From Candidatus Fervidifonticultor secundus (lineage in GTDB: Bacteria > Sysuimicrobiota > Sysuimicrobiia > Sysuimicrobiales > Humicultoraceae), in contig JAVKIP010000003.1 of assembly GCA_031459385.1 (NCBI GenBank), positions 133,192 to 197,191 on the forward strand: a stretch of DNA of 64,000 nt, in the 5' to 3' direction. Under the pieces are notes generated by a model, which was not told where the DNA came from, ran no database searches, and was given only the letters and a program-made list of their open reading frames with translations. Shown here piece after piece: positions 87 through 15,591 of this stretch (the stretch's first letter is position 1; every line of letters starts with the position of its first letter). Made by a program: the position numbers and the translations under genes.

Positions 87-2192
87 TCAAAACCGGGGGT
101 TATCGTACCAGCGGTCGATGATCTGATAGGCTGCTCGCAGGAACCGGGCATCCACGCCGCCCCCGGGGTCGAGGACGTACCCGACGCCCTGGTTGATGTG
201 GATGTACTGGCCCAGCAGCGCCCCGGTGAACTCGCCCGCCTGGTTGATGCTGATGTTGGCCCTCGGGGCGAAAACCACTGCCGACACCCGGTTCTCCTGA
301 TCCCACCAGATGGACGCGACGCCGGTCTCCTCGTACGACGGGTCGCTGGCGCAGCTCAGCACCTGGATGCGGTCCCCCGGCCAGACGAGCAGCGCGCCCG
401 GCTTGGTGTCGTCCACGCCGAACCACGACCGCTGCCCCAGACGGAACGTCCTCCCCACGTGGAAGTACACTTTTCCTCTCCCGGAGATGGCCAGGACCGC
501 GTCCCGCTCGAAGATGACGCTGGTGGCATGGATGTGCAGTTCGGCCGCGGGGTTGTCCGGCGTGCTGATCGTCATCCGCTGCCCGGCCCCCGGATGCACC
601 TCATCGTAGCGGAGTTCCTTCACCAGGCCCTCGGCCTCGCTGTGCACGATGCGCAGCGGCGCATCGTTGTTCGGGTCTGGGCTCGGCGTGCACGGGGGCG
701 GCACGAACGGCGCGCACAGGACCTCCCGCACGTGCTCCCGCACCACGCCGTCGACCTGCGCGGCACAGCCCTGCGAGCAGTTCACGTCGCGCCCTGCGAA
801 GGCGTTGCCGAAGATCGCGCGCGGCTCGGCGTAGATGACCGCCGTATCGGCGACCTTGTCGATATACCCTCGCTCGACGACCGAGGGGTTGGGGTTCAGA
901 TCGTCGAGCTGGTCGTTCCTCGGCGCGATCTCCGCGACGAACCGCCACGGCGCATTCGGCGTGCCGTCTTCCCTGCGCCGGTAGATGCGCCGCTTGAGCA
1001 CGGTGGCGCTCTCGGGAATGCCGGTGAGCTTCGTGTACTGGCCGTTCAGGTCCAGTGGACCGGCGGCGGGGCTCGCGGGGCTGCTCCCCACGGACTCGAT
1101 CTCGGCGGTCGTGGAACCCGGGTAGCGGTACACGTACGTGACCTTGTACGTGTAGCGGCCAGTCAGTCCCGGGGGCCGGACCGGCGGGTCGGCGGGAGCG
1201 GCCGCCGGCGCGCTCGCCGGCGCGGGCGGGCTGGGCGCCGTGGGGATCTGATGGATGAGCTCGCCGTCGACCCGCGTGTCGAGGTAGGTCTGCGTGCTAT
1301 TGTCCGGAATCTCGCCCACGAAGAACCACGGCCCCGTCGCCGCCTGCCCCGCGCGGGTTCTGTAGACTCTCCGCTTGACGATCGCCGCGGCGCCCAGAGG
1401 GATATTCGTCAGGGACCCGCTCTGGTTCGACAGCGCGACCGCGCCCGTCGCCGGGCTGCCGGCAGACTCGGCGCCGGCTGCGGTCACAAAGGTGACCTTC
1501 CAGGAGTAGGTGCCGGTCAGCCCGCGCGGCGCCTCGTCAGGGTCGATGGCGGTGGGCGTAAACCCGGCAGCGCCGGGGGGCGCCGCGAGGTCGTCGTCCC
1601 TCGCCTGGATGGTCCCCGGGTTGCGCCGTGGCCCCGCAACGGAGATGTCCCGATTGCTGGCCACATCGGCGGTGACAGACGTACCCTGGTCGAGCCGGAC
1701 GCCCCGCCGGCCGCAGAACCCGCCGAACGCATCGCCGCCCGGCGGCGAGCGCCGCACCCATACCTCGATCCGACGCCGAGCGCGCCCGACGCTGCTGGTG
1801 GCGATGACGTGCCGCACCTCGTTGTCCTGACAGCCTGTGGCTCCGGGCGCGGCGCCGTCGGTGCACCGCACGGCGACCTGGAACACCCCTGGACCGAATG
1901 CGATGGGTGTTCCCGACCCCGTCCAGCACTCGTCGTTGGAATGGTTCGGGGCGCACACCCAGGGCGGAGTGGTCTGCACGGCCCGGTCGTAGAGCTGCGA
2001 AATCGCGTAGGCGACGCCGGCCTCCGCCACGTTCAGCGTCTGGATCGCGAGACGGTTGGCCACCGCGCCGTGCAGGTCGCTCATGACCACCGAGAACACG
2101 CCGATGCCCATGAGCCCGACGAGGAGCGAGGTCACGAGCACGAGGGGAAGGGCGAAGCCTGGCTCCCTCCGCAGCCGGCGACACGTCACCAT
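87..2192 (-). CDS. Cassette 1 large PilX/GspK/ComZ-like minor pilin (tip protein) with two inserted FN3/Ig-like repeats
   Basis: Class III signal EPG|FALPLVLV lacking E5 (PilX hallmark), NVAEAGVAYAI PilX N-terminal motif, C-terminal IDRWYD strand; ATG with GAGG upstream. Confidence 0.8.
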   Translation of the reverse strand: MVTCRRLRREPGFALPLVLVTSLLVGLMGIGVFSVVMSDLHGAVANRLAIQTLNVAEAGVAYAISQLYDRAVQTTPPWVCAPNHSNDECWTGSGTPIAFGPGVFQVAVRCTDGAAPGATGCQDNEVRHVIATSSVGRARRRIEVWVRRSPPGGDAFGGFCGRRGVRLDQGTSVTADVASNRDISVAGPRRNPGTIQARDDDLAAPPGAAGFTPTAIDPDEAPRGLTGTYSWKVTFVTAAGAESAGSPATGAVALSNQSGSLTNIPLGAAAIVKRRVYRTRAGQAATGPWFFVGEIPDNSTQTYLDTRVDGELIHQIPTAPSPPAPASAPAAAPADPPVRPPGLTGRYTYKVTYVYRYPGSTTAEIESVGSSPASPAAGPLDLNGQYTKLTGIPESATVLKRRIYRRREDGTPNAPWRFVAEIAPRNDQLDDLNPNPSVVERGYIDKVADTAVIYAEPRAIFGNAFAGRDVNCSQGCAAQVDGVVREHVREVLCAPFVPPPCTPSPDPNNDAPLRIVHSEAEGLVKELRYDEVHPGAGQRMTISTPDNPAAELHIHATSVIFERDAVLAISGRGKVYFHVGRTFRLGQRSWFGVDDTKPGALLVWPGDRIQVLSCASDPSYEETGVASIWWDQENRVSAVVFAPRANISINQAGEFTGALLGQYIHINQGVGYVLDPGGGVDARFLRAAYQIIDRWYDNPRF

Positions 2193-2209
2193 CGTGCGCA
2201 CCTCGCCTT

Positions 2210-2848
2210 CTATGGCCCGCGTAGGCTGACGACCGTCTGGTACGTCTGCCGCTCGGGCGGCCGCCCTGCGGCCGATGCCGCCTCCACGGTCATCGTGATC
2301 CTCAGCGAGTGGACCTGCCGGCGATCGGCGGTCACGTTGCCGTCCCGATCGAGGTAGACGAACCCGCCCCCACTCTGCACGATGGGTGGGGTGAGGGCGA
2401 TGCGGCTGGGATCCGGGGCGGTCCGGGTGGTGACCTCGTCGGTGCACGGCTCCACTTCCTCGGGGCGGGTCTCCTGATAGAGCGTCTGGTTCTCCACGTA
2501 GTACACGTAGCGCAGTCGATCGTCGGGAGGTGCGCCGGGTGGGGACCGGTCCTCGAGGATGGCGTGGAAGGCCAGCCGCTGGCCGAATCCGTTGCCGGTG
2601 CCGATGACCAGGAAGCCCTCGGGGCAGGGCCGGTCGGCGTCGTAGTTCACCTGGCGCACCCGGTCGGCCAGCCACGCCATGGCCTGCCGTGCGCGCTCCT
2701 GGTCCGAGACCCGGGCGTGGACGATGAACCGCCCCCTGATGACGGCGCTGAGCAGCAGGTAGAGGCTGCTCACGACCAGCGCGGCGATGGCTAGGCTGGA
2801 GACCAGCTCGATCAGGGTCAGGCCCTCGGCGCGGCGCAGCAGCTTCAC
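2210..2848 (-). CDS. Cassette 1 PilW/GspJ-like minor pilin
   Basis: AEG|LTLIELVSSL prepilin motif; GTG overlaps the upstream stop (GTGA); C-terminal TVVSLRG typical of PilW/J. Confidence 0.8.
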   Translation of the reverse strand: MKLLRRAEGLTLIELVSSLAIAALVVSSLYLLLSAVIRGRFIVHARVSDQERARQAMAWLADRVRQVNYDADRPCPEGFLVIGTGNGFGQRLAFHAILEDRSPPGAPPDDRLRYVYYVENQTLYQETRPEEVEPCTDEVTTRTAPDPSRIALTPPIVQSGGGFVYLDRDGNVTADRRQVHSLRITMTVEAASAAGRPPERQTYQTVVSLRGP

Positions 2849-3369
2849 GGCGGGCACCGTCCGGTGAAGATCTCCGCAACGTACGTCGTGGTGGAGGCGT
2901 CCGGCGGGTACACATCCGGGTCTGGCCGCGGTCCGGGCCCCCAATCGGTCTTGTAGTAGTACACGGTGACGCGCTGCATCGCGGGCCCCGCCGGCTCGAC
3001 CTCCACGTACCCTGCGTCGGGAGCCGTCCCGGCCCGGCCCTCGACCACGGCCGGCAGCGCCGGTTCGCCCCGCAGCGTCGGATGCGGGACCTTCCAGCCC
3101 GGTTCGGGCAGCGGGGAGCACAGACGCCGCAGGAACTCGATCTCCCCCTGCATCCACAGGGTGGCTGCGCTGCGATCCTGGGACTGCTGGCGAGTGATGG
3201 TCAGGCTGCCGACGATCGCGCCCATCATGAGCGGTGTCGCCAGCCCCAGGATCAGCATCGTGACGAGCAACTCGACCAGCGTGAAGCCCCCGCGCCCAGA
3301 CCAGGACGCGAGGGCCCTCGCCGTGGCTGCGGGTGCCCTATCCACAGTCGGACGGTCGCCGCGTGTCAT
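2845..3369 (-). CDS. Cassette 1 PilV/GspI-like minor pilin
   Basis: RGG|FTLVELLVTML motif; AATLWMQGEIEFLR helix shared with the other PilV-like genes. Confidence 0.8.
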   Translation of the reverse strand: MTRGDRPTVDRAPAATARALASWSGRGGFTLVELLVTMLILGLATPLMMGAIVGSLTITRQQSQDRSAATLWMQGEIEFLRRLCSPLPEPGWKVPHPTLRGEPALPAVVEGRAGTAPDAGYVEVEPAGPAMQRVTVYYYKTDWGPGPRPDPDVYPPDASTTTYVAEIFTGRCPP

Positions 3370-3892
3370 CGGTGATCGCTCCGGTCTGCGCCGCCACGCA
3401 GATGTGGTAGGCCTTGCCTGTCAGGCTGCTGCGCACCCTGAGGGTCCCGCCGGCCTGCGGAATGCCCGTGGGGTCCCAGGCGAGCGCGGCCGGCAGGGAC
3501 GACCATTCGACATCGGCGGGGAAGCAGTAGCGCTTGATCACGGCCGCCGCCTGCGCAATCGTGTACGACGGTCGGTCGACGCATGCCGGATCGCTGGCCG
3601 CGAACGTCACATCGACGTCGGCGCGGCGCGTCAGCGCTTCCTGCTGGGCGACGCGCAGATCGGACGCCAGGGTGCGCGCCACGGCCAGCGCGCGCTGGTT
3701 GCTCTGGTAGTTGCGGTACGAGGGCAGGCTGAGCCCGAGGACGACGCCCGCCAGCGCGAGGACGAGCACGGTCTCCAGATACGAGACACCACGCTGACCC
3801 CTGTAGGGAACCGCCGCCCCGCCCATCGGCGCCGACGCCTGCGCTCGGCCCTCGCGCGCCGAGCGCCGCTCAGAATCACGAAGAGAGCGCAT
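3338..3892 (-). CDS. Cassette 1 FimT/GspH-like minor pilin
   Basis: QRG|VSYLETVLVL; LASDLRVAQQEA FimT/H motif; C-terminal VAAQTGAI. Confidence 0.8.
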   Translation of the reverse strand: MRSLRDSERRSAREGRAQASAPMGGAAVPYRGQRGVSYLETVLVLALAGVVLGLSLPSYRNYQSNQRALAVARTLASDLRVAQQEALTRRADVDVTFAASDPACVDRPSYTIAQAAAVIKRYCFPADVEWSSLPAALAWDPTGIPQAGGTLRVRSSLTGKAYHICVAAQTGAITDDTRRPSDCG

Positions 3893-3900
3893 CCGCGCGG

Positions 3901-3990
3901 CCCTCTTCGGTAGCCCGGCCGACCCGCCGACACAGCCGGGTCCCGCAGCTTTGCGCCCCCGGATCGCTCCGGGGTCAGCCCGTTCGGAGG
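3901..3990 (-). ncRNA. c-di-GMP-I (GEMM)-like riboswitch upstream of cassette 1
   Basis: CCUCCG-AACGGGC-UGA-CCCCGGA-GCGA-UCCGGGG-GCGCAAAG, a P3 hairpin, then ACCGAAGAGGG; G20/A47/C92 equivalents present; 3' strand of P1 (GAGGG) lies 8 nt before the ATG. Confidence 0.85.
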
Positions 3991-4100
3991 TGTCGGCTCG
4001 AACCTTCCCTGCAAGCTCCCTGGACCTTCACCGGAGGTGCCCCACCGCCGGCGAAGGGTTGTGAGTGTTCTCCAGGCCGGCGAGAACTCCTCCTGACGAT

Positions 4101-4150: not shown

Positions 4151-4157
4151 GCGGGGC

Positions 4158-4754: not shown

Positions 4755-4991
4755 GAGGACGCTCCCTGAGCCTTCCCCCAGAGCCTGCAGGGGAGTTCTT
4801 CGATCGTGGTGTAATCTTCCCGCCGGCGCGCCTGGCGCACGGCGGTGGACCTGGCACGCTCCCTAGTCTAGCAGTTGCGTCAAGGGCCGGCACTGTCGCC
4901 TGGCGGCCTGGATCGCTTCGGCCACAGGCACTGAGGGACCGACTGGGATGCACCGCCGGTGGGCACTGTTGCTATGGAGCAGGAGTCGCGA

Positions 4992-5085
4992 CGTCCTCCG
5001 ACAATGGCCACCCCGGAGCGATCCGGGGGCGCAAAGTCCCAGGGCCCGCGCGATCCGCGGGCTGGCTGCACTGCCGAAGAGGGCG
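4992..5085 (+). ncRNA. c-di-GMP-I (GEMM)-like riboswitch upstream of cassette 2
   Basis: CGUCCUCCG-ACAAUGGC-CA-CCCCGGA-GCGA-UCCGGGG-GCGCAAAG, P3 GCCCGCG/CGCGGGC, then GCCGAAGAGGGCG; P1 CGUCCUC/GAGGGCG. Confidence 0.85.
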
Positions 5086-5133: not shown

Positions 5134-5676
5134 ATCACGTCCAGGGCGCGAGACGGATTCACCCTGCTGGAAACCCTGATCGTTGTGGCGGTGCTGGGCC
5201 TGCTCCTGGGCTTCTCTGTGCCCCTCTACCGCGGCTCCCTGGCCGACCGCGCCGTCTGGAACGCCGCCTTTCAGGTCCAGAACGACCTCCGGCTGGCGCA
5301 GCAGGTCGCCCTCGCCAGGGCAGGGCGCGGGCCGAGGGTGGAGCTGTGCTTCCTGAGCGCGAACCATGACGCCGGCTACGAGATCTACACGGTGGACTAC
5401 ACCGACCGGTTTGCGCGGACGGGCGCGGTGATCGGCCAGACGGTGAAGGTCGTCAGGGCCGGCGAGGCCTTCCGCACCGGCCTCGACGTGGACGTGGAGG
5501 CAGGGGCAACGCAGGCCTGCCTGGCCGGTGGCGGCAGACCGGCACTGGTCTACCTGAGCACGGGCAGCCCGACGTTTGCCACCGAGCGGCGCATCACCCT
5601 TACCTATCAGGGCCGCTCGCGGTGCGTCACGATCACCCCCACGACGGGCCGCGCCACGGCGGGGCGGTGTCCGTGA
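5134..5676 (+). CDS. Cassette 2 FimT/GspH-like minor pilin (start uncertain: ATC at 5134, or a frameshift from GTG 5090)
   Basis: RDG|FTLLETLIVVAV; VQNDLRLAQQVA; C-terminal ITPTTGRA; no in-frame ATG/GTG/TTG between the riboswitch and the pilin motif. Confidence 0.7.
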   Translation: MTSRARDGFTLLETLIVVAVLGLLLGFSVPLYRGSLADRAVWNAAFQVQNDLRLAQQVALARAGRGPRVELCFLSANHDAGYEIYTVDYTDRFARTGAVIGQTVKVVRAGEAFRTGLDVDVEAGATQACLAGGGRPALVYLSTGSPTFATERRITLTYQGRSRCVTITPTTGRATAGRCP

Positions 5677-6227
5677 GGGCGGTCCGTGGCAGCCGGACCG
5701 GCCCTCCCCGACTGCGCGCCGCCGGCTTTACCACCTTCGAGGTCCTGCTGGCCGCCGTGGTGGTGGCGCTCGTGGTGGCGTTCACGATCCGGGTGGTTGT
5801 CGCGACACTGGGGCTCGTGGGAAGTTCCGAGCGGGACCCGCAGCACGGCGCGCGCGCCCGGTCGCAGGCGACCGAGTGGATCCAGGCAGCGATCGAATAC
5901 AGCCGGGCCGTCGGGTTCGACGCGCTGCGCAGGGCGCCGACGTGCGCTGCGCTGACCGCGCTGTCGCCATGTCACTTCTGGATTCCGCCGGCGGTCGACA
6001 GCGCGGATAGGCCGTTCGACCTGGGGCCGGCGCTGCCTTCTGGCTTCGACTGCGGCCATGTGCAACTGGCGCAGTGGAGCGCCAGCCCGCCGCCCGGCGG
6101 CGATCTCGACAACCTGCTGTCGCTGACCGTGGAGGTCTACCGGTCCCGCACGTCCTGCGACGCCGGCGGGACCGGGCAGGCGTTCATGACCGCTCAGACC
6201 GCCATCGCCAGGCGGCAGGGACCGTAG
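5673..6227 (+). CDS. Cassette 2 PilV/GspI-like minor pilin
   Basis: AAG|FTTFEVLLAA; QATEWIQAAIEY helix; GTGA overlap with the upstream stop. Confidence 0.8.
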   Translation: MRAVRGSRTGPPRLRAAGFTTFEVLLAAVVVALVVAFTIRVVVATLGLVGSSERDPQHGARARSQATEWIQAAIEYSRAVGFDALRRAPTCAALTALSPCHFWIPPAVDSADRPFDLGPALPSGFDCGHVQLAQWSASPPPGGDLDNLLSLTVEVYRSRTSCDAGGTGQAFMTAQTAIARRQGP

Positions 6228-6241: not shown

Positions 6242-6832
6242 GTGGTCAGGGCGACCGGCCGGGTGCGCGAGCGGGGCATGACCCTGATGGATGTGGTGGT
6301 GGGCCTGGCGCTCATGACCGTCGCGGCCCTGGGGATCTTCGCCGGCTTCAAGGGCGCGCTCACCGGCTGGACCGTGGCCCAGCAGGTCACCGCGGAATCC
6401 CACAACGCGCGCTTCGTGCTCGAGTACGTGGCGCGGCTGCTCCGGATGGCCGGGAACGAGTACGCCGGCGGTCCGCCGCTGGCCGTGACGAACCCAGACG
6501 AGGTCGTCTTCCTGGGCAACGTGGACGACGACCCGCAGGTGGAGTGCTACAGCATCTACCGCGACGGGCAGGGCGTCGTCCGCATCTTCGCGATGGAGCT
6601 GGGGGGCGCGGACCCGCCGCCGGCGGCGTGCACCGGCGCCCGGGCCGCGGGAGCGGGCCAGCCGCTGACGACCCAGGTCGAGGCGCGGAACATCACCGTG
6701 GAAGACCTGCGGCTCTCGTACAGCCCGACGGTGCTGCCGCGACGGGTGACGCTCGAGATCCGCGTGCGCGGGGTCGGCTCACCCGGACCGTTGACGATGT
6801 CCACCCAGGTGTTCTTGCGCGCAGGACAGTAG
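6242..6832 (+). CDS. Cassette 2 PilW/GspJ-like minor pilin
   Basis: ERG|MTLMDVVVG (D at position 5); NARFVLEYVARLLRMAG; C-terminal TQVFLR. Confidence 0.8.
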   Translation: MVRATGRVRERGMTLMDVVVGLALMTVAALGIFAGFKGALTGWTVAQQVTAESHNARFVLEYVARLLRMAGNEYAGGPPLAVTNPDEVVFLGNVDDDPQVECYSIYRDGQGVVRIFAMELGGADPPPAACTGARAAGAGQPLTTQVEARNITVEDLRLSYSPTVLPRRVTLEIRVRGVGSPGPLTMSTQVFLRAGQ

Positions 6833-6843: not shown

Positions 6844-8640
6844 ATGGGACGCGAGGCGCACACCCACGGCGCGCACGGGCACGGCCCGCACGCACGCCGC
6901 GGGCGGGGCGAGCGGGGCACCGCGATGCTGATGGCCCTGGTGGTGGTCCTGATCCTGGCCCTGCTGACCATCGCCCTGGCCAACGTCGCCGTCACCGAGT
7001 ACTCCACGGCCGCCGCGCTGGATCGCAGCCTAAAGGCCCTGATCGGCGCCGAAGGGGCGGGCGAGGCCCTCATCGCGTTCCTGCGCACCCAGGCAGACTG
7101 GACAAACCTGGCAACCACCGGTGGCTGGACGAACGGCAGCCTGCCCGCCGCCCTCCGGCAGGGCACGCTGCCGGGCAGCGACGTCAGCTATGAGATTCGC
7201 GTGCGCCACCTGTCCGGCCCGGGTTACGATCCGGCGGTCAACATCCTGGTGCGGGTCGTGGGCGAGGCGCGCGGACAGAGCCGGGCCGTCGAGTTCCTGC
7301 TGCACAGGGTGGGCCCGGCAGACTTCATCTTCTATTCGGTAGACAACGTGGACATCTGCTCGATCGCGGGCGGCGGCAGCCTGCAGTTCCACGGCTCGGC
7401 CTACTTCCAGGCCGATCTGTGTCTCAAGGGGGGCGCCGAGTCGGGCTTCTACAACGACCGCCCGGTGTCCACGGCGCACCGCGACGCCAACGGGAACCAG
7501 CTCTTCCTCAACCATCTGTACGTGCAGGGCAACCTGGACGGCACCGGCAACCCCTCCATCGGGACCGCCTCGCAGCACTACTTCTTCCTGCACGTGGCCG
7601 GGACGCTTACCAACAGCAACAAGTTCTTCTATGACAACTTCGACCGGAACGTGAAAGACCCGTTCTATCCCGCCGTGGTGCAGATCGTCGCGCAGGCCGC
7701 CAGCAACCCGGCCAATGCGGGGCGACAGCAGGGCACACAGATGGAGCTGGCCATCTGCGAGTACAACCCGGCCGGCAACACGTGGGCGAAGGTCTACACC
7801 CCGAACCTGAGCCTGCAGGCCGGCAAGGTCTTCTACCTGCCGCGCCCTACGGTCGAGACCGGCTACTGGCTCGCGGACACGAGCCCCTGCCCGAACTCCG
7901 GGACACTCCCCGACGCGGTCCGCGCCTCGTCGCTCTACGCCCTCTACTGGGACGGACGGTCGAGCCCGGCCAGCGGGACCAGCAACCTGGTGATCCCGGT
8001 GTCCGACCGGCCGATCTACGTGCCGGGGAAAGTGCTGCACGGGCAGAACGTCCGGTTCGAGGGCAAAGGGCAGATCGTGGCAGCCAACCAGCCCGGAGCC
8101 GGCGTCAGGCTCGCCGACGGCACGCGGGTGGCGGTAGCCGCGCAGAGCACGTGTGCCTGGAACCTGGACGACCCCACCGCTGCCAACGCCACCGGCAACG
8201 ACTGCGGGGACAGCAACAATGCGGGCTACTGGGTCAGAGCGAAGGTCTCGCCATGCCGCCAGCCCCCGGGGCCGGGGCCGTTCGCCAACGACAACCCCGC
8301 CTCGACGTTCGTCCGGCGCTATGGCGCCAACGCCGCCGGCGATGTGGTCGTGTTCGTCGTCAACGGGAGTGCCGGGTCGCGGCTGAACGCCAACGCCTGC
8401 GACCAGGAGATGAACCTGATGGCCGTCGTCGGCGACGCGGCCTCGAGCGCAGGCTTCCGGATGGCCTACAAGCTGCAGTGGTACGGCGTGTTGATGACCA
8501 GGCAGATGCGCCTGGGACAGGTGCCCGACTTCTGGCAGATGCCGGATACGTTCGGCGAGCTCCCCGGCTGGATGAAGAACATCCTGCTCGGGCAGAACTC
8601 CGGGGTGGTCCGCGTGGAGCGCTGGCGGGAGCTCTTCTAA
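6844..8640 (+). CDS. Cassette 2 large PilX/GspK/ComZ-like minor pilin
   Basis: ERG|TAMLMALVVV; ALIGAEGAG; C-terminal VRVERWRELF. Confidence 0.8.
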   Translation: MGREAHTHGAHGHGPHARRGRGERGTAMLMALVVVLILALLTIALANVAVTEYSTAAALDRSLKALIGAEGAGEALIAFLRTQADWTNLATTGGWTNGSLPAALRQGTLPGSDVSYEIRVRHLSGPGYDPAVNILVRVVGEARGQSRAVEFLLHRVGPADFIFYSVDNVDICSIAGGGSLQFHGSAYFQADLCLKGGAESGFYNDRPVSTAHRDANGNQLFLNHLYVQGNLDGTGNPSIGTASQHYFFLHVAGTLTNSNKFFYDNFDRNVKDPFYPAVVQIVAQAASNPANAGRQQGTQMELAICEYNPAGNTWAKVYTPNLSLQAGKVFYLPRPTVETGYWLADTSPCPNSGTLPDAVRASSLYALYWDGRSSPASGTSNLVIPVSDRPIYVPGKVLHGQNVRFEGKGQIVAANQPGAGVRLADGTRVAVAAQSTCAWNLDDPTAANATGNDCGDSNNAGYWVRAKVSPCRQPPGPGPFANDNPASTFVRRYGANAAGDVVVFVVNGSAGSRLNANACDQEMNLMAVVGDAASSAGFRMAYKLQWYGVLMTRQMRLGQVPDFWQMPDTFGELPGWMKNILLGQNSGVVRVERWRELF

Positions 8641-8785
8641 CCTTATCACTCGCAGGTAGCAGACGCCCGGGCGCCCGGCCGTGCCCTCCCGTCGTCGCCC
8701 CTCCCGCCCGGCTGGGCGGGTCTAGGACCGCGGTCTCCGGGGCATGACCCTCCCGGGGGGACTCCGGTCAGAGGAGTGGGATCGC

Positions 8786-9283
8786 GTGCGGTGCCTTTGG
8801 CAGGCGGCCTGGCGTGGCCACACAGCTCCGACGGCCGCCGGCGTCACAGTCCTGGAGCTCGGGGTCGCGCTGGGCCTGGGGGCGTTGCTCCTGGCCCTAG
8901 CGATGCCACTGTACTTCGGCTTCGTGCGCGAGCGCCGGGTGGCCCGCGTGGCCGAGGACCTGGCCGGCCTGCTGCGCTTCGCACAGCAGCGGGCGGTGGC
9001 CCAGTCGGTCGACAGCTGCGGCGTGCAGGTCGTCACCCTGAGCTCCCGCGCCGAGGTCCGGCGGATCCCGCGGGAGGCGGACGGCGACTGCGCCGACCCG
9101 GTGACGATCCGGGTCGGCGAGCCGTACCCGCAGGGTGTCGCCGTGGCCGAGGTCACCGTCGAGTTCTCCAGTGCGGGATCCCTGGCCACGGGCAGCGCGA
9201 CCTCGATCGGCATCGCCTCGGGGGGTCGCACGCGCACGGTGTCGGTGCAGGCCGCCACGGGAAGGGTGGAGATCACGCCATGA
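8786..9283 (+). CDS. Cassette 3 FimT/GspH-like minor pilin
   Basis: AAG|VTVLELGVAL; LAGLLRFAQQRA; VQAATGRV; GAGGAG 9 nt before the GTG (alternative ATG at 8744). Confidence 0.75.
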   Translation: MRCLWQAAWRGHTAPTAAGVTVLELGVALGLGALLLALAMPLYFGFVRERRVARVAEDLAGLLRFAQQRAVAQSVDSCGVQVVTLSSRAEVRRIPREADGDCADPVTIRVGEPYPQGVAVAEVTVEFSSAGSLATGSATSIGIASGGRTRTVSVQAATGRVEITP

Positions 9284-9810
9284 CGCCGCGCAAGCCGGAT
9301 GGCGGGTTCACGCTGATCGAGGTGGTCATCGCCATGCTGCTGCTTGGCATCGTGGCGCTGGGGAGCAGCGGCGTGGTCCGGTCGCTGGGCCTGCTGGGGC
9401 GCTCGCAGATCTCCAGCGACCGCCACGAGCGGCCCGCGCGGCTGCGCACGCTGGCCATGGAGTACATCCAGGCCGAACTGGAGTACCTGCAGAACCGCTC
9501 GTACTACGCCCTGCGCGACGCCTCGGCGTGCAACCCGCCCGGGGCGCCCACGCCGATCGCCGCGGCGCGCCGCGTCCCGAGCAGCTACCTGGACGCCAGC
9601 GAGCCTCGCCTGCCGGCCTCGTTCGCAGCGGCGGACATCATCATCACGACGGATCCGACCATCACCGCGCCGGCGTCCCCGCCCCTGGACTGCCGGCCCA
9701 GGGTCATGAGCGTCACCGTCTACCTGGCGCCCGGCGACCTGCCGGCTGTGCCCGGCGGCGCAGGCGGCACCCCCTTCATCCGCGGCGCCACGGCCCGGTC
9801 GTGGCGATAG
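9280..9810 (+). CDS. Cassette 3 PilV/GspI-like minor pilin
   Basis: DGG|FTLIEVVIAM; LAMEYIQAELEYL; ATGA overlap. Confidence 0.85.
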   Translation: MTPRKPDGGFTLIEVVIAMLLLGIVALGSSGVVRSLGLLGRSQISSDRHERPARLRTLAMEYIQAELEYLQNRSYYALRDASACNPPGAPTPIAAARRVPSSYLDASEPRLPASFAAADIIITTDPTITAPASPPLDCRPRVMSVTVYLAPGDLPAVPGGAGGTPFIRGATARSWR

Positions 9811-9839: not shown

Positions 9840-10475
9840 ATGCCACGGCACGCGACGCGGACGGCTGACCGGCGGGGCGAGCGGGCATTCACCGTGCTGG
9901 AAGTGCTGGTGGCGCTCAGCCTCTTCGGGGTGGTCCTGCTCACGGGCTTTGCGGCGTTCAACGCCAGCTACCGCGGTCTGGTGGCGGGCAAGGAGCTGGC
10001 CGACGAGCACCAGAACGCGCGGCTGGTCCTGGAGTGGATCACCCGCCGGATTCGCCTTGCCGGCATCGGCGCGCCCCCCGGCACCACGGCCTTCTTCAGC
10101 GAAGCCGGTACCAGCGCCCTGGCGTTCGTCGCCGATACCGACGCCGACGGGGTACTCGAGTGGCGCCGGTACTGCCTGGATGCCGCCGCAGGCGCGGTCC
10201 GCGAGCAGGTGCTCGAACCCGCACCCACCCCGCTGCCGTCCCCCGGCGACGCCTGCGCCGGCGCGACCATCACCTCCCAGGGGCTGCATGCGCTGCGCGT
10301 CTCCCTGCTGCAGTTCTCGTACTTCAACGGGCAGGAGGCGGCAACCAGCGCCCTGTCCCAGATCCGCCGGGTCCGGATCGTGCTGGGCCTGGACTCGAAC
10401 CGCTCGGGCGCCTACGACGCCGCCCAGGACGTCACCTTCACGATGGACGCCGTGCTGCGGAACCCGCTCCAGTAG
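9840..10475 (+). CDS. Cassette 3 PilW/GspJ-like minor pilin
   Basis: ERA|FTVLEVLVAL; QNARLVLEWITRRIRLAG; C-terminal AVLRN. Confidence 0.85.
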   Translation: MPRHATRTADRRGERAFTVLEVLVALSLFGVVLLTGFAAFNASYRGLVAGKELADEHQNARLVLEWITRRIRLAGIGAPPGTTAFFSEAGTSALAFVADTDADGVLEWRRYCLDAAAGAVREQVLEPAPTPLPSPGDACAGATITSQGLHALRVSLLQFSYFNGQEAATSALSQIRRVRIVLGLDSNRSGAYDAAQDVTFTMDAVLRNPLQ

Positions 10476-10510
10476 CGGGGACGCCGTCTGCCGCCGGAGG
10501 GCATGTGACC

Positions 10511-12382
10511 ATGGACAGCGCGCGACCCACAACGTCGGTCAGGCGATCGCCCGGCGAGGCCGGGCTGGCGCTGGCCCTCGTGCTCTTGACCATCAACGTC
10601 ATCCTGATCGTCACCGCGACCCTGGTGGCCATCGCGCTGAACGAGTACCAGGCCGCGGCTAGCGGCGAGCGGTCGCGCCAGGCATTTCAGCTGGCCGAGG
10701 CCGGGCTGGAGAAGGCGATCTACGAGCTAAAGCGCGACCTGGACTGGACCGACTCCGGCGCATCCGCAGCCGCCACCAGGAACCTCAACGACCCGCGGGA
10801 GTGGGCACCGCTGTGGGACGGGAGCGCGAACCTCGTCGACACGCCGTTCCCGGCGGGGGCGACGATCGGCGAGATCACCGTCGAGCTGTGCCGCGACGAC
10901 AACTTCGGCGACGGCAACGGCTGCCCGGGCGTGCCCGCGCCGACCGTGGCCGGGTGCACCCCGAATGCCTGCATCTGGGTGCGGGCCACCGGGCGCATCC
11001 CCGGGCTGGCCGCGCGGCAGATCGAGTTCCTCCTGAGCCAGATGGCGCCGGGGTACGACCTGATCAACTACTCGGCGAGCCCCATCAACATCGGCGCCGG
11101 CGGCGGCGGCAACGGCAGTTTCATCCTCCACGGCTCGCTCTACATCGCCTCGTGCCTCGACCCCGACGGGGGCGGTCCCCAGCCGTGCGTGGGTCTCGTC
11201 ATGCAGGGTGACGGCGCCATCCTCAACGACGTGCCGTATCCCACGCCGGGCGACCCGGACACCACCCCACCCTACAACAACAAGGTCTATGTGGTCGGTC
11301 AGATCCAGGGCCAGGGCAACTCGTGGCAGATCGGCCTGGACAGCCAGCCCATGCAGGGCGTCTATGCCACCCTGGGCTGGTCCAGCGGCTACGAGAACCA
11401 GATCGACGCGCTCGACAAGGGGACCGTGGTGCCATTTGTACCCTTCCCCGACCCCTCGAAGCTCTGTGAGCCGGGGGCCCCCGGCGATCCACCGCGGTGC
11501 CTAATGAACCGGCTCAACCTGCCACCGGCCGACGGCGGCATCACGCCCATCAACGCCGACCTGGCGTACGTCTGCACGGCCGCCACCTGCACCACTGCGG
11601 CCTCGTGGACGCCGGTGTACATCCGGGGGCCCCTGGCCGACCCCCTCACGCCGCTGCGGCTCTCGGCGAACAACCCGACGCGCACCCGGGTCGTGATTCC
11701 CGACCGCAACCCCGACGGCTCGCCGGCGGTGAACTGCACGACGACGCCGTCGACGTGCAATGTCGCCGCCGGGACCGGCAGCGTGAACGGGTCGGGGAAC
11801 TTCTCCCTGGTCTACAACGGCTACGCGGGCGCCGGCCAGGTGAACCTGTGGACGCAGTCCGGGGCCGATGCCTTCATCCACACCACCAAGCACGTTCGGA
11901 TCGACGGCGACGTGCGCTACGCCGGCCGCACGACGTTCCTGATCGAGAACGCCGACGACGTGGGCGCGGCGATGCCGGCACTGGAGATCCGCGGGTCGGT
12001 CACGCCGCTGTGCCGGGCCAGCCAGACCACCTGCGCCCAGACGTTCGGTCAGGCCAACGGGGACACCTACGCGTTCGCGGTCGGCCCCAAGTGCACGGGC
12101 GCGCCGCCCAGCGGTTCGCTGGTCTGCACGCCGACCGGGGGCGGCGTCTACGTCCGGGGGTCGGGGATCGAGCTGAACCTGGTGGTGCTGGCCCACGGGA
12201 CGCTCAAGAACGACAACCCGCAGACCTGGTACGGCATGTTCATCGCGGGCCTGCTGGACTGGGACAACAACCCGTCCATCTATCCCGTGGCCAACCTGAA
12301 GGCGAACCTCCCGCCCGGCATCGCTCCGCTGGCCAAGCCGGGGTTCGGGCTGCAGATCACGCGATGGCGCGAGGTCTTTTAG
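10511..12382 (+). CDS. Cassette 3 large Cys-rich PilX/GspK/ComZ-like minor pilin
   Basis: EAG|LALALVLL; QAFQLAEAGLEKAIYEL PilX motif; C-terminal LQITRWREVF. Confidence 0.85.
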   Translation: MDSARPTTSVRRSPGEAGLALALVLLTINVILIVTATLVAIALNEYQAAASGERSRQAFQLAEAGLEKAIYELKRDLDWTDSGASAAATRNLNDPREWAPLWDGSANLVDTPFPAGATIGEITVELCRDDNFGDGNGCPGVPAPTVAGCTPNACIWVRATGRIPGLAARQIEFLLSQMAPGYDLINYSASPINIGAGGGGNGSFILHGSLYIASCLDPDGGGPQPCVGLVMQGDGAILNDVPYPTPGDPDTTPPYNNKVYVVGQIQGQGNSWQIGLDSQPMQGVYATLGWSSGYENQIDALDKGTVVPFVPFPDPSKLCEPGAPGDPPRCLMNRLNLPPADGGITPINADLAYVCTAATCTTAASWTPVYIRGPLADPLTPLRLSANNPTRTRVVIPDRNPDGSPAVNCTTTPSTCNVAAGTGSVNGSGNFSLVYNGYAGAGQVNLWTQSGADAFIHTTKHVRIDGDVRYAGRTTFLIENADDVGAAMPALEIRGSVTPLCRASQTTCAQTFGQANGDTYAFAVGPKCTGAPPSGSLVCTPTGGGVYVRGSGIELNLVVLAHGTLKNDNPQTWYGMFIAGLLDWDNNPSIYPVANLKANLPPGIAPLAKPGFGLQITRWREVF

Positions 12383-12422
12383 GGGTCTAGGGCGGCCCGG
12401 AAACGGGCAAAGAGTTCCAGGG

Positions 12423-12514
12423 CTCCTCCGACAAAGGCTACCCCGGAGCGATCCGGCGGGCGCAAAGCTCCAGAACCCGGGTTCTCCCAGGTTGGCTGAG
12501 CTACCGAAGAGGGG
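12423..12514 (+). ncRNA. c-di-GMP-I (GEMM)-like riboswitch upstream of cassette 4
   Basis: CUCCUCCG-ACAAAGGC-UA-CCCCGGA-GCGA-UCCGGCGG-GCGCAAAG, P3 AGCUCCAGAACC/GGUUGGCUGAGCU, then ACCGAAGAGGGG immediately before GTG 12521. Confidence 0.85.
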
Positions 12515-12520
12515 AGAGTT

Positions 12521-13045
12521 GTGGGAACTGCCTTCTGCAGAGCCACGCGCACGGGCTCGAGCCCGTCCGCTCCGCACCGCACGCGCCGAATCCCACACGG
12601 TGCTCGTCAGGCGCCCTCTGGGCGCTGGCAGGCCGGGTACACGGTCCTGGAGCTGCTCATCGTCTCGGCGATCGGCCTGCTGGTGCTGTCGTTCGGGGTC
12701 GGCAGCATCAGCCGGGCCATGGCCCGCGAGGAGCTGGATGGCTGGGCCCGGGCCATCGCCGTCGAACTCACGGCCGCCCAGCAGGCGGCCATGACGCGCC
12801 GGACCAGCGTCACGGTGTCGTTCCAGAACAACGCCTTCATCGTGGTGGCCAGCGGCGGCGGCACGCTGCGCGCGCAGGACCTGCCGTCCCACATCAGCTT
12901 CGGCGCCACGCTGCAGACGGTGACGTTCGACCGGCGGGGGGTGCCAGGCGGCGCGTCCTCCGTATCGCTGACGAGCACGCGCGCCGGGAAGACCTACACC
13001 ATCACGATCCAGCCCAACACGGGACGGGTGACCGCAGATGGCTGA
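12521..13045 (+). CDS. Cassette 4 FimT/GspH-like minor pilin
   Basis: QAG|YTVLELLIVS; ELTAAQQAAM; IQPNTGRV. Confidence 0.8.
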   Translation: MGTAFCRATRTGSSPSAPHRTRRIPHGARQAPSGRWQAGYTVLELLIVSAIGLLVLSFGVGSISRAMAREELDGWARAIAVELTAAQQAAMTRRTSVTVSFQNNAFIVVASGGGTLRAQDLPSHISFGATLQTVTFDRRGVPGGASSVSLTSTRAGKTYTITIQPNTGRVTADG

Positions 13046-13475
13046 CCGCCCGCGCGCCCGCCGCGCCAGCGGCGGGTTCACCCTGATCGAGGTCGTCGTC
13101 GCCATGGCCGTGCTCTCCCTGGTGGCCACCACCGCGCTGGGCGGGCTGCTGTTCACCATGACCCAGACCCGGCGCGGCTTCGACCGGGCCCAGGCCGCGG
13201 CATGGGTCCAGGCCGAGCTGGACTTCCTGCGCACCATGGGGTACGGGCTGGCGCCGGGGACGCGCACTGTGCCCACTGACGGCTATCTGGCCAACAGCGA
13301 CCTGCAGGAACCGCGGATTCCCGACGGGTTCGACCGGGCCGAGATCGTCGTCGAGGACCTCACCGGCAGCCTGGGCATTCCCCTGAAGTCCATGACGGTG
13401 CGCCTGTACCAGACGCCGACCTCCCCGCCCTACACGATCCTCGTCACGTATGTGGCGAACTTCGACTACCCGTGA
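13038..13475 (+). CDS. Cassette 4 PilV/GspI-like minor pilin
   Basis: SGG|FTLIEVVVAM; AAAWVQAELDFLR. Confidence 0.85.
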   Translation: MADRPRARRASGGFTLIEVVVAMAVLSLVATTALGGLLFTMTQTRRGFDRAQAAAWVQAELDFLRTMGYGLAPGTRTVPTDGYLANSDLQEPRIPDGFDRAEIVVEDLTGSLGIPLKSMTVRLYQTPTSPPYTILVTYVANFDYP

Positions 13476-14185
13476 GCGGACCAGCGATGCGCCGGCCTGG
13501 GGCAGCACGGCACGGACAGGCGGGGATCTCCCTCGTCGAGGTCATGGTGGCCATGGTCATCATGACGGTCGTCATCGGGACGATCGCGACGCTGGTGGGC
13601 GCGTCGGTCCGCAGCAAGATGATCGTGGCCAGCCGGTCCTCCGACACGGAGACGGCACGCCAGACGCTGGAGATGATGTCCGAGCGGCTGCGCAACGCGG
13701 GGCTGAACATCGACCCTGCGGCCCAGCCCGACCGCTGCGACGACATGGTCGTGGCCAAGGACCCGGCCCTGCGGCCGACGGCGACCCAGCTCTACGTGGC
13801 CGGCGAGATCTTCAACTCGAACACGACCGCGGGCGACCAGGTGATCGTGCTGGGCTACCGGCTCACCGGCGGCCGGATCGTCGAGGACCGCAGCGCGTGC
13901 GGCGTATGGGCTCCGACGACCAGCGATGTCTCGAACCCCGGGATCACGGTGACGAGCCTGCTCTTCCGGTACTTCGGCTCAAGCGGCGGCGAGATCACCG
14001 TACCCACAACCGACGAGGAGGCGATCCGGAGCATCCGCGTGGTGCAGATCAGCCTCACGGTCCGGGCCGAGGAGGGACGGTCGGGCGCCCAGATCCAGCG
14101 CTTCAGCCGGCAGGTGATGCTGCGCAACCCCCGGCCGGACCGCAGTGGCTGGCTGCCGCCGGCCGGATGGGAGACGAATCCATGA
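13472..14185 (+). CDS. Cassette 4 PilW/GspJ-like minor pilin
   Basis: QAG|ISLVEVMVAM; ARQTLEMMSERLRNAG; QVMLRN. Confidence 0.85.
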   Translation: MSGPAMRRPGAARHGQAGISLVEVMVAMVIMTVVIGTIATLVGASVRSKMIVASRSSDTETARQTLEMMSERLRNAGLNIDPAAQPDRCDDMVVAKDPALRPTATQLYVAGEIFNSNTTAGDQVIVLGYRLTGGRIVEDRSACGVWAPTTSDVSNPGITVTSLLFRYFGSSGGEITVPTTDEEAIRSIRVVQISLTVRAEEGRSGAQIQRFSRQVMLRNPRPDRSGWLPPAGWETNP

Positions 14186-15591
14186 AAAGAGGCACGATGC
14201 GGCCCGCCGGCGCCGGGCGCCTGCGCCGCACGCCGGCGGGCGGCCAGGCTGGCGCGGCGCTGCTCTCGGTGGTGCTCTTCCTGCTGCTGATCCTGATGGT
14301 CACGGTGGGTGTCATGGCGGTGGTCCGCAGCGACCTGGCGGCCGGCATCCGCCAGCAGCAGGCCGTGCAGGTCTTCAACGTGGCGGAGGCGGGCGTGCAC
14401 TACGCCATCGCGCGCCTGCAGACCTCTGGGGCGAACCGGTACGACGGGGCCACGGTCCCCATCACCGACGGCAGCACCACCATCGGGACCGCCACCATCC
14501 AGGTCCGCTGCCTGGACGGCACCCTCCCGAGCGCCAGCGCCTGCAACGGTGCCGAGCCGGCCTACCGGCGGATCGCCTCCACCGGAACGCTCACGGTGGC
14601 AGGACCCCGTCGGGTGGTGACGGCGGTGGTCGAGGGCACGACCTCAGTGACACGGACCTACGCGGTGTGCGCCTACGACGCCCTGACCCTCGACCAGCAG
14701 GTGACGGTCTACGGGTCGGTGGGCACCAACGGCATTATGACGCTCAGCGGGCCCAACAACCTCAACCGTGCGGCGATCTGCGACTCCACCCCGGGCGGGC
14801 TGGGCGGCCGGTGCGGCACGCCCAATCCCGCACCCGCCAGCTCGTTCACGGCCGGCGCCTCCGCCGTGGGGACCATCACGTGCAACGGGGGCGGCTGTGC
14901 CAACCAGGTGGAAGGGCCGACGACACCCAACCAGCCGGCCGGGTCGGTATGCCCGACGGTCACGCTCCCGGGCTGGGGGCCCCCGGGCACCACGCCCCTG
15001 TCGGTGCCCCTCGGCAGCACGGTGTTCGCCAACCCCGCCACCAACTACGGCTCCGTGACGCTGGCGGATACGCCCGGCAACCCCAACCCCTGCCCGTCGG
15101 ACCCCGCGCAGCGCGCCACGCTGGTGCTGGACGCGGGCAGCGACCCCACCGCGACGGTCACGTTCCAGATGGCCACGCTGTCGGTCGGCAAGTGCGCCCG
15201 CGTCGAGATCCGCGGGCAGGGGAAGGTCGAACTGCGGTTGCTCGCGCCGACCACCACGGCGCTGCGCACCGTCCAGCGCTCGGTCCTGGGGACCACCTCG
15301 CAGACCGTCGGCAGCGAGGTGGCCGTGGAGGGCCACCGGTTCACGGTCAAGGTGGTGTCCACCCACTCGACCGCCGCCGTCGACTTCAACCAGTCGGGCT
15401 TGATCGCCGGCACGTTCATCGTGCCCAACGGCGGGTTCCACCTGGACCAGGCACAGATCACCAACGGCGCGATCCTGGCGAGGGCCGTCGACTTCGACCA
15501 GGGCACCACCTTCACGTGGGACCCGCGGTCGATCATCGGCGACCAGGTCTACGGCGACTTTCGCCGGCTGCGAGCCTGGAAGGACCAGTAG
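14182..15591 (+). CDS. Cassette 4 large PilX/GspK/ComZ-like minor pilin
   Basis: QAG|AALLSVVL; QVFNVAEAGVHYAIARL; C-terminal RLRAWKDQ; ATGA overlap. Confidence 0.85.
   Translation: MKRGTMRPAGAGRLRRTPAGGQAGAALLSVVLFLLLILMVTVGVMAVVRSDLAAGIRQQQAVQVFNVAEAGVHYAIARLQTSGANRYDGATVPITDGSTTIGTATIQVRCLDGTLPSASACNGAEPAYRRIASTGTLTVAGPRRVVTAVVEGTTSVTRTYAVCAYDALTLDQQVTVYGSVGTNGIMTLSGPNNLNRAAICDSTPGGLGGRCGTPNPAPASSFTAGASAVGTITCNGGGCANQVEGPTTPNQPAGSVCPTVTLPGWGPPGTTPLSVPLGSTVFANPATNYGSVTLADTPGNPNPCPSDPAQRATLVLDAGSDPTATVTFQMATLSVGKCARVEIRGQGKVELRLLAPTTTALRTVQRSVLGTTSQTVGSEVAVEGHRFTVKVVSTHSTAAVDFNQSGLIAGTFIVPNGGFHLDQAQITNGAILARAVDFDQGTTFTWDPRSIIGDQVYGDFRRLRAWKDQ

Follow-up and report, generated by a model that had tools for sequence, protein, structure and literature searches.

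Introduction

In Thermus thermophilus, the tip protein ComZ (6QVI) combines a pilin fold with a beta-solenoid of triangular shape, which can be superposed on FfIBP, an ice-binding protein; ComZ was placed at the tip of the pilus and binds PilA2, and the minor pilins of Thermus were described as closer to type II pseudopilins (PMC6561018). Here we report on a locus of Candidatus Fervidifonticultor secundus at which four four-gene cassettes of minor pilins occur together, three of them directly behind an RNA aptamer for cyclic di-guanosine monophosphate (c-di-GMP). The window that was analyzed comprises 64 kb (positions 133192-197191 of contig C23) of an assembly of 3.3 Mb, which is 97.6% complete with 5.5% contamination. 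In the NCBI taxonomy Fervidifonticultor belongs to Candidatus Sysuimicrobiota, family Humicultoraceae. The main text of the paper naming this phylum contains none of the terms pili, pilus, c-di-GMP and riboswitch (PMC11604079).

How one type IV pilus machine yields filaments for different tasks is an active question. Treuner-Lange et al. are said to have found in 2020 that alternative minor-pilin/PilY1 clusters of Myxococcus xanthus each prime the same type IVa pilus; we know of no riboswitch at these clusters. Clostridioides difficile reportedly possesses one class II c-di-GMP riboswitch before pilA1, the major pilin gene, and the main pilus cluster. Direct control of type IV pilus genes by a c-di-GMP riboswitch was described in this species (PMC6366702, PMC6200980). 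Genes associated with the GEMM RNA in a report of 2007 include pilM, pilO, pilQ, pulF and cpaA, and where GEMM terminators overlap the aptamer, more ligand was described as giving more expression (PMC1950547). In cyanobacteria, two core minor-pilin sets, with PilX subunits containing beta-solenoids, were reported to share one machine and to prime different filaments on it; cyclic AMP (cAMP) and c-di-GMP regulate the operons pilA5-6 and pilA9-12 in opposite ways (PMC13759059).

Judging from the sequences, it is likely that the cassettes described here are four old core minor-pilin operons which serve as alternative tip or priming sets for a type IV pilus and which are under c-di-GMP control.

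Results

Gene order and small pilins of the cassettes

The initial annotation had described four complete cassettes in identical gene order. Analysis of reading frames and start-codon tables confirmed this arrangement at positions 87-15591, the genes being designated A, B, C and D in each cassette (Table 1). All 16 reading frames were open and of full length. The proposed coupling by GTGA and ATGA was also found, as five overlaps of 4 nt between stop and start codons (three GTGA, two ATGA), among them the GTG start of c1C at the stop codon of c1B. Paralogues at the same position of different cassettes were only 23-33% identical (c2B and c3B, 28%; c2C and c3C, 30%, E 2e-13), so the duplications must be old. 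Gene order, cleavage motifs and overlapping stops and starts have been retained despite this divergence.

All four A proteins passed the Pfam GspH model (23.7-27.7 bits, cut-off 21) and contained the cleavage motif G↓xxxxE, in keeping with the former label FimT-like; the NCBIfam equivalog models GspH and ComGD remained below their cut-offs. An acidic residue at +5 after the cleavage Gly or Ala was present in each of the 12 A, B and C proteins (11 Glu, 1 Asp). Pfam N_methyl, the sole Pfam match for the B and C proteins, was passed by three of four B and two of four C proteins. Scores with the gspI, XpsI, gspJ and PilV models were far under the cut-offs, profile searches of PDB sequences recovered N-terminal helices only (E 0.006 or worse), and the protein atlas yielded merely leads. 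The labels PilV-like and PilW-like thus did not stand in the same way as FimT-like, since they rest on gene order, size and sub-threshold matches.

For some A genes more than one start was considered. Initiation of c1A at ATG 3892 gives a leader of 35 amino acids, initiation at ATG 3826 one of 13 amino acids. For c3A we preferred GTG 8786, because ATG 8744 overlaps a promoter-like motif (see below). The GTG start of c4A lies 12 nt past the aptamer and gives a leader of 39 amino acids; the same position is in frame in two genomes of the same genus (G001 and G002). As the sole canonical start sits right after the aptamer, the GspH-type prepilin of cassette 4 (12521-12637) and its orthologues in L046 and L049 appear to have leaders of unusual length (39, 40 and 23 residues). 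An in-frame ATC as alternative start of cassette-4 A genes was rejected, as it has no ribosome site and is expected by chance.

Table 1. Coordinates of the genes, RNA elements and sequence motifs in the window
Feature	Position	Strand	Basis and remarks
c1D, large Glu5-less pilin, cassette 1	87..2192	-	701 aa from ATG 2192; GTG 2201 alternative start
c1C, third prepilin (GspJ/PilW position), cassette 1	2210..2848	-	motif G↓LTLIE; N_methyl 19.3 bits, below cut-off of 21.2
c1B, second prepilin (GspI/PilV position), cassette 1	2845..3345	-	motif G↓FTLVE; N_methyl 27.5 bits; ATG 3369 alternative start
c1A, GspH/FimT-type minor pilin, cassette 1	3338..3892	-	Pfam GspH 27.2 bits, cut-off 21
RS1 platform hairpin	3879..3909	-	CGAAGAGGGC pairs with GCUCUCUUCG; ATG 3892 in loop
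RS1, c-di-GMP-I aptamer before cassette 1	3906..3990	-	RF01051 43.0 bits, E 4.4e-05
Weak motif variant AGTCTA-N13-GGGCC	4865..4895	+	one mismatch per half; 131 nt before RS2; lead only
RS2, c-di-GMP-I aptamer before cassette 2	4996..5078	+	RF01051 47.3 bits, E 4e-06
GTG-TGA start-stop at position equivalent to the cassette 1/4 start codon	5088..5093	+	comparison of sequence and spacing
c2A, GspH-type minor pilin, cassette 2	5134..5676	+	Pfam GspH 26.0 bits
c2B, second prepilin, cassette 2	5673..6227	+	motif G↓FTTFE; no Pfam match; GTGA overlap with c2A stop
c2C, third prepilin, cassette 2	6263..6832	+	motif G↓MTLMD; GTG 6242 alternative start
c2D, putative ComZ-like large pilin, cassette 2	6844..8640	+	598 aa; AlphaFold2 and Foldseek
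Promoter-like motif GGTCTA-N15-GGGCA before cassette 3	8719..8744	+	exact copy
c3A, GspH-type minor pilin, cassette 3	8786..9283	+	Pfam GspH 23.7 bits
c3B, second prepilin, cassette 3	9280..9810	+	N_methyl 33 bits; ATGA overlap with c3A stop
c3C, third prepilin, cassette 3	9840..10475	+	N_methyl 23.4 bits; GGGAGGA 7 nt 5' of ATG
c3D, large Glu5-less pilin, cassette 3	10511..12382	+	623 aa; PilX_N 17.5 bits (below cut-off)
Promoter-like motif GGTCTA-N15-GGGCA before RS4	12384..12409	+	exact copy; ends 14 nt 5' of P1 5' strand
RS4, c-di-GMP-I aptamer before cassette 4	12426..12508	+	RF01051 43.1 bits
c4A, GspH-type minor pilin, cassette 4	12521..13045	+	Pfam GspH 27.7 bits; ComGD E 3.2e-12 (below cut-off)
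c4B, second prepilin, cassette 4	13038..13475	+	N_methyl 33.4 bits
c4C, third prepilin, cassette 4	13472..14185	+	N_methyl 28.1 bits; GTGA overlap with c4B stop
c4D, putative ComZ-like beta-solenoid pilin, cassette 4	14182..15591	+	469 aa; AlphaFold2, Foldseek and VIA-align
Strong terminator-like hairpin after cassette 4	15616..15650	+	14 pairs, then T-rich tail

Likeness of the large D proteins to ComZ

Counted from the predicted cleavage Gly, position +5 is occupied by neither Glu nor Asp in any of the four D proteins. A hydrophobic N-terminal helix that lacks Glu5 is a hallmark of GspK-type tip subunits. Similarity between the D paralogues was limited to the N-terminal 200-300 residues; divergence is greatest in the portion that the tip would expose.

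The AlphaFold2 model of c4D, built from 37 homologues, reached a predicted local distance difference test score (pLDDT) of 87. Foldseek returned the three ComZ chains of 6qvi as the sole matches with E <= 0.001 (E 4.5e-06, probability 1.00). With VIA-align, residues 155-448 superposed on the ice-binding-protein solenoid 4nu2 (Z 18.1, root-mean-square deviation (rmsd) 2.7 A, 191 aligned residues), and c4D aligned with ComZ at Z 15.6 over 325 residues with an rmsd of 11.5 A, a high value which we attribute to a different domain angle. For c2D (pLDDT 73.7, model from 15 sequences), matches with E <= 0.001 were likewise confined to the three ComZ chains (best E 3.2e-10, TM-score 0.37-0.42). Profile alignment by hhalign had linked c2D to the c4D family over 38 columns only (probability 46.6), and it was the fold search that then put this protein with ComZ. 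On these models, the D proteins of cassettes 2 and 4 are predicted to have the ComZ-like fold, a pilin with a beta-solenoid.

The full length of c1D could be aligned with the c4D family (hhalign probability 99.4, E 3.2e-21, 404 columns), apart from one large insertion of about 250 amino acids that consists of two repeats of about 90 amino acids. No Pfam family matched the insert, and c1D gave a weak DUF7305 match under the cut-off. The repeats (813-1625, minus strand; motif ...YxYKVTxV...RRxYR...) sit inside the solenoid region. c3D was 28% identical to c2D over 304 amino acids (E 3e-18) and aligned with the c4D family in the N-terminal 205 columns only (probability 95.2). The match of the D models to ComZ and the alignment of c1D agree with the earlier proposal that the cassettes are related to the H-I-J-K pilins of filament tips. 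As far as sequences and models can tell, they are core minor-pilin sets of the H-I-J-K type whose fourth protein is ComZ-like.

A complex of c4D (residues 54-469) with the second pilin c4B (residues 43-145) was predicted with a score of 0.71, the best control reaching 0.01. Such a score was attained by 116 of 157 solved complexes and by 2 of 215 mismatched pairs. Three runs shared at least 95% of the contacts, and the pLDDT of the partner was at least 86. The result may stem from likeness to solved complexes of the GspK-GspI type.

Three c-di-GMP-I aptamers

An Rfam scan of the window gave exactly three matches, all of them to c-di-GMP-I, in sense orientation and directly 5' of an A gene. Each exceeds the gathering score of RF01051 (35 bits). 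A more sensitive search upstream of cassette 3 (8200-9100, filters off) with our own leader model, which was built from nine pilin-linked leaders, had its best hit on the wrong strand (7.2 bits, E 0.16), and the structure of the spacer between c2D and c3A was not unusual (z 0.87). Both searches bear out that cassettes 1, 2 and 4 each possess a GEMM-like RNA of their own and that cassette 3 has none.

We aligned 75 aptamers of the lineage, 72 of which were distinct. In this alignment, which was fitted to the model and therefore favours the structure, 93.5% of the cells were paired, compared with 76.6% in shuffles (none of 500 shuffles reached the observed value). Changes on both sides occurred in 21 of 28 pairs, and the structure scored far above slid controls. 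In stem P1 (CCUC with GAGG) all four pairs change on both sides and 97.5% are paired, which argues that P1 is real. Its 3' strand GAGG is the only Shine-Dalgarno sequence that precedes the start codon in cassette 1 and in cassette 4, in RS4 as part of GAGGGGAG. Directly 5' of the first stem, all three leaders carry a G, which we take to be the counterpart of G20 of Vc2, presumably an A in variants sensing cyclic GMP-AMP (cGAMP). By score and covariation we regard the three leaders as genuine c-di-GMP-I aptamers.

Expression platforms and possible sign of the switches

The three expression platforms differ from one another. In RS1, the 3' strand of P1 doubles as the Shine-Dalgarno sequence and can instead enter an alternative hairpin (Table 1), whose other strand lies in codons 2-5. 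The whole leader folded at -103.3 kcal/mol with this hairpin and at -94.6 kcal/mol with the aptamer enforced, a gap that could plausibly be bridged by ligand binding. RS4 has the same architecture with a weak hairpin (AGAGGG with CCUUCU), and an extended P1 covers the ribosome site in the fold. The start codons of cassettes 1 and 4 lie 12-13 nt past the aptamer. The usable ribosome site of cassette 2 (GGAGG, 5121-5125) is located 43 nt beyond the aptamer and outside P1. Pairing of the RS2 5' P1 strand (CCUCCGA) with this distal site (UCGGAGG) appeared in a shorter fold only and was absent in the longer one; it is regarded as a lead only.

Relatives provided a hint on the sign. In seven pilin-linked leaders of four other genera (G007 twice, G041, G022, G012, G013 and G011), GAAGAGGGC forms the 5' half of a hairpin that is followed by a U-rich tract, a classical design with ligand-ON logic, in which binding prevents termination, as described for GEMM (PMC1950547). 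Since the RS1 hairpin is homologous to these terminator stems, control of cassette 1 need not be purely post-transcriptional. The former proposal of post-transcriptional selection by c-di-GMP is supported in part, by the aptamers; an exclusively post-transcriptional mode is not required.

The same leaders could also be read uniformly, with all three riboswitches acting as translational OFF switches, so that only cassette 3 would be made at high c-di-GMP. The covariation of P1, whose 3' strand is the Shine-Dalgarno GAGG, and the short distance to the start codons in cassettes 1 and 4 are in line with such a mode. So are the loss of the U-rich terminator tail from the three cassette-4 leaders of the same genus and the fact that enforcing the aptamer lowered the modelled accessibility of the ribosome site in RS1 (0.23 vs 0.47) and RS4 (0.39 vs 0.63; RS2, 0.30 vs 0.30). 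It is at odds with the homology of the RS1 hairpin to terminator stems of ON logic and with the position of the usable GGAGG of cassette 2, and the ligand-free hairpin of RS1 would hide the ribosome site and the ATG even more strongly than the aptamer does. We consider a uniform OFF mode somewhat unlikely. Thermodynamic folding by itself does not settle the sign. Returning to switches that differ between the cassettes, we lean slightly towards cassette 1 being turned on by c-di-GMP, because its hairpin is homologous to terminators in relatives. For cassette 4, a damping effect, suggested by the ribosome-binding site inside P1, has about an even chance.

Aptamers of the c-di-GMP-I class also precede prepilin genes of 119-125 codons (G↓FGMIEVL) in L086, L095 and L098 (G018, G014 and G044). 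Their platforms resemble an antiterminator-terminator pair and would follow OFF logic, unlike the ON-type cassette leaders.

Promoter-like motif and a candidate sigma gene behind a riboswitch

Exact copies of a promoter-like motif, GGTCTA-N15-GGGCA, precede cassette 3 and RS4 (Table 1), and none was found before RS1. Genome-wide, GTCTA-N14-17-GGGCA occurred at 18 sites, seven of which are situated just before c-di-GMP riboswitches or pil genes. Five such sites of this genome (G000) outside the window (C5:77619; C10:13440, 15326, 52046 and 57358) precede three other c-di-GMP riboswitches, pilM and the pilD-pilQ spacer. The motif is kept before the cassette-4 riboswitch in both genomes of the same genus, G001 and G002. 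Cassettes 3 and 4 probably have promoters of their own belonging to a pilus-associated class.

A candidate sigma gene (Sigma70 r2, r3 and r4) was identified on contig C10 behind its own c-di-GMP riboswitch, and a Roadblock/LC7 gene follows it. Cassette 3 had been proposed as the unswitched default. This view is too simple: the cassette has no riboswitch, but it shares the promoter-like motif, and a c-di-GMP riboswitch precedes the candidate sigma gene. Judging by these sequence features, cassette 3 is not necessarily independent of c-di-GMP. The module of an aptamer with terminator, sigma gene and Roadblock/LC7 gene (C10 15435-16869; L003, L008) lies beside pilus motor genes. It was also seen in L065 (1961-3456) and L062 (6637-8108), and in G003, G004 and the CSP1-3 record it stands directly 5' of a cassette-4-type operon.

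No terminator-like hairpin was found between cassettes 2, 3 and 4, and a strong one follows cassette 4. A sigma-70 promoter scan of positions 1-16500 detected no site where 0.6 were expected and is uninformative in this lineage. Contigs of the metatranscriptome X1 included three short near-perfect ones (c1D, c1C and c3A) besides many partial ones, which is not proof of transcription. Between RS1 and RS2, a DUF3105 gene (4158-4754, minus strand) lies on the same strand as cassette 1, and co-transcription of the two is therefore possible.

Pilus machine and c-di-GMP genes elsewhere in the genome

According to the initial annotation, the window contains no major pilin, PilB, PilC, PilD or PilY1 gene. 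Scans of the complete contig C23 for T2SSE, T2SSF and Peptidase_A24 were empty, and a scan for prepilin motifs disclosed no prepilin beyond the four cassettes. These parts of the statement were thus upheld. The PilY1 part was not, as the genome search with Pfam T4P_PilY1 gave no match, yet the control also matched in no genome.

A type IVa set was found on contig C10, comprising pilB (with MshEN), pilT, pilC, a small pilA, pilM, pilN, pilO, a gene with a GGDEF domain, pilD and a pilQ with an AMIN domain. In the whole genome, pilC and pilD are each present once, as is a pilMNO-pilQ set. The genome thus contains more than one complete minor-pilin set, namely the four on C23, together with a single set of machine genes. 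This fits the assumption of one pilus machine, which the cassettes would share. Contig C10 further harbors the gene of a second PilB-like ATPase of 820 amino acids with TPR and MshEN as well as additional PilT-like genes, and a Tad-like cluster is located on contig C25. Both PilB-like ATPases (C10:16888-19350, L099; C10:21487-23196, L100) contain MshEN, a known c-di-GMP-binding module in some ATPases. The GGDEF-domain gene between pilO and pilD lies at C10:54508-55485 (L101 2509-3486). In total, the genome yielded seven GGDEF matches and eight c-di-GMP-I aptamers. One of these aptamers (C4:76608-76687, L004), equipped with a terminator, precedes a gene for an apparent Fur-family regulator and a binding-protein gene for metal uptake, both judged by their translations only.

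These data also bear on the question whether the cassettes might encode pseudopilin sets of a type II secretion-like system or another filament. Such an origin would explain the GspH matches of the A proteins, the weak sub-threshold matches to GspG, GspI, GspJ, GspK and Xps models and the second PilB-like ATPase, and the minor pilins of Thermus have the same leaning towards pseudopilins (PMC6561018). The genome, however, encodes a complete type IVa set including PilM, PilN, PilO, PilT and PilQ, its other T2SSF and secretin genes occur only in the Tad-like cluster (GspC, GspL and GspM were not searched), and the D proteins match a pilin of the pilus tip. We therefore regard the pseudopilin explanation as highly improbable and continue to treat the cassettes as sets for a type IV pilus.

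Conservation in relatives

The relatives recovered by a protein-based scan were metagenome-assembled genomes labelled Armatimonadota, Candidatus Fervidifonticultor or Candidatus Geohabitans. Aptamers of the c-di-GMP-I class were present in all 41 genomes sampled from the order. A hidden Markov model of the D N-terminus matched strongly (E < 1e-20) in 27 of 34 genomes of the family and at least twice in 16 of them (25 and 14 of 32 without the unpublished G010 and G019). The maximum per genome was four, which was reached here and in G010. A hand comparison of coordinates among the matches listed revealed an aptamer at most 3.5 kb upstream of a D gene on the same strand in at least 14 genomes (at least 13 without G010). 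With the leader model, the 13 best matches, 9 of which belonged to the training set, all precede a prepilin gene. The gene starts within about 130 nt in 12 of them; in the thirteenth, from G010, the prepilin motif appears only at +617.

The arrangement of the cassettes varied. G002 contains a riboswitch, a paralogue resembling cassette 3 (43-55% identical), the orthologue of cassette 3 (about 80% identical, without riboswitch), a further riboswitch and the cassette 4 orthologue. In G001, the 2.9 kb of sequence that could be inspected 5' of the cassette 2 orthologue contain no riboswitch; this orthologue is followed by a riboswitch and cassette 4. L058 (Candidatus Fervidifonticultor) shows a riboswitch, cassette 2 and cassette 4 and no second riboswitch, and in G003, G004 and a CSP1-3 record cassette 4 is preceded, in this order, by a riboswitch, the sigma gene and the LC7 gene. 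Among the loci compared, an orthologue of cassette 1 was encountered in this genome only, while those of cassettes 2 and 4 persist across genera. The synteny check suggested with the initial annotation hence revealed that the linkage of riboswitch and cassette recurs. The number of four does not: relatives have one to four cassettes, and riboswitch placement varies.

Discussion

By homology, each cassette would be equivalent to pilA1-pilA2-pilA3-comZ, with a GspH-type protein, two small pilins and a Glu5-less GspK/PilX-type protein bearing a solenoid, and each set would assemble into the priming and tip complex of a type IV filament. Their most likely partner is the single type IVa machine, whose genes lie at another place in the genome. 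Differences in tip properties between the resulting pili are expected, because it is the putatively tip-exposed solenoid that differs most between the sets. As the GAGG of P1 either serves for ribosome binding or contributes one strand to a competing hairpin, ligand binding would be expected to alter expression of the first gene, and the overlapping stop and start codons probably pass the effect on to the following genes. In this way c-di-GMP could reach all cassettes, three of them directly and the fourth perhaps indirectly through the riboswitch-gated sigma gene. The most specific version of this scheme combines opposite signs in one locus (cassette 1 and perhaps cassette 2 ON, cassette 4 OFF, cassette 3 sigma-dependent), a choice by c-di-GMP of which of four tips caps the shared pilus and conservation of this choice in Candidatus Sysuimicrobiota; taken as a whole, we think it unlikely.

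Several results weigh against c-di-GMP-controlled tip sets. Curated models place no B or C protein in GspI/PilV or GspJ/PilW. Where the model has the conserved bulged A, presumably A47 of Vc2, the aligned bases of the three leaders are G, C and C, so that their affinity could differ from that of studied examples; this position was variable in other aptamers of the same genome, too. The GAGG of cassettes 1 and 4 is base-paired whether P1 forms with ligand or the alternative hairpin does, and the modelled accessibility of the ribosome site differs little between the states. The promoter-like motif is only mildly over-represented (18 sites vs 8-17 in five Markov-1 simulations). A second MshEN-type PilB-like ATPase and a Tad system are also present, so that a single shared machine is only probable. 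Finally, c2A has no ATG, GTG or TTG between the aptamer and the cleavage site. The sole in-frame start candidate past the aptamer is ATC 5134, with the GGAGG 8 nt upstream. Cassette 2 may thus be partly decayed or misassembled. Considered for itself, the start region of c2A (5088-5136) could be explained by an unusual start codon, by decay of the gene or by a mistake in the assembly.

If decay were general, the sets would be redundant, partly decaying duplicates whose riboswitches act on the first gene only or are relics, and there would be no choice of tips. The missing canonical start of c2A behind a GTG-TGA start-stop, the weak alternative hairpin of RS4 and the variation within the genus (three cassettes in G002, two in G001, and cassette 1 confined to this genome among the loci compared) would be accounted for. 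Decaying duplicates would hardly be expected to leave all 16 frames open and of full length, to keep order, cleavage motifs and overlaps at 23-33% identity, to retain aptamers that score above the cut-off and are still paired, or to persist across genera as cassettes 2 and 4 have done. This makes general decay very unlikely, and we maintain that the cassettes are alternative tip or priming sets.

Comparison with known systems

The competence pilin locus of Thermus thermophilus HB27 is the nearest counterpart, since pilA1-pilA2-pilA3-comZ, like each cassette, consists of three small pilins and a far larger pilin-like protein (PMC6561018). The likeness of the solenoid to an ice-binding protein was reported for ComZ and computed here for c4D. 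The partner of ComZ is PilA2, the second pilin of its set (PMC6561018), and for c4D a complex with the second pilin c4B is predicted. Thermus has one set, whereas four tandem sets that are 23-33% identical exist here, and three riboswitches were found here while we are not aware of one described for the Thermus locus.

For cyanobacteria, too, it has been proposed that more than one complete set of minor pilins primes different filaments of one machine (PMC13759059). Cyanobacteria belong to a different phylum and have two sets instead of four, and according to the same source their control is transcriptional through regulators of the CRP family, in contrast to the c-di-GMP aptamers in the mRNA leaders described here (PMC13759059). 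The sets of Myxococcus xanthus include PilY1, for which our search gave no match, the control being silent as well; the D solenoid may take the place of PilY1. Clostridioides difficile differs by its single riboswitch of class II, compared with class I before several minor-pilin operons in this locus. The GEMM RNAs reported in 2007 belong to the same class, and the list of associated genes is without minor-pilin or tip cassettes and without several gated paralogous cassettes (PMC1950547). The initial annotation knew of no described locus with this layout, and in agreement with this our literature search, from which subscription journals were excluded, returned reviews and the work on Clostridioides difficile but no paper on a c-di-GMP riboswitch before minor-pilin cassettes.

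The components and the general idea are already known, since pilus genes controlled by riboswitches and genomes with more than one minor-pilin set have both been published. What is new is that several paralogous minor-pilin operons appear to be gated directly by riboswitches and that the platforms vary within one locus. Recent studies of Myxococcus and cyanobacteria speak for alternative minor-pilin sets that prime the pilus and are selected by transcription factors, whereas here the choice appears to be wired into the mRNAs themselves, in an arrangement that recurs across a family of an uncultured phylum. Should the signs or thresholds of the switches be different, the locus would represent a compact case in which a second messenger selects a surface structure and needs no protein regulator to do so.

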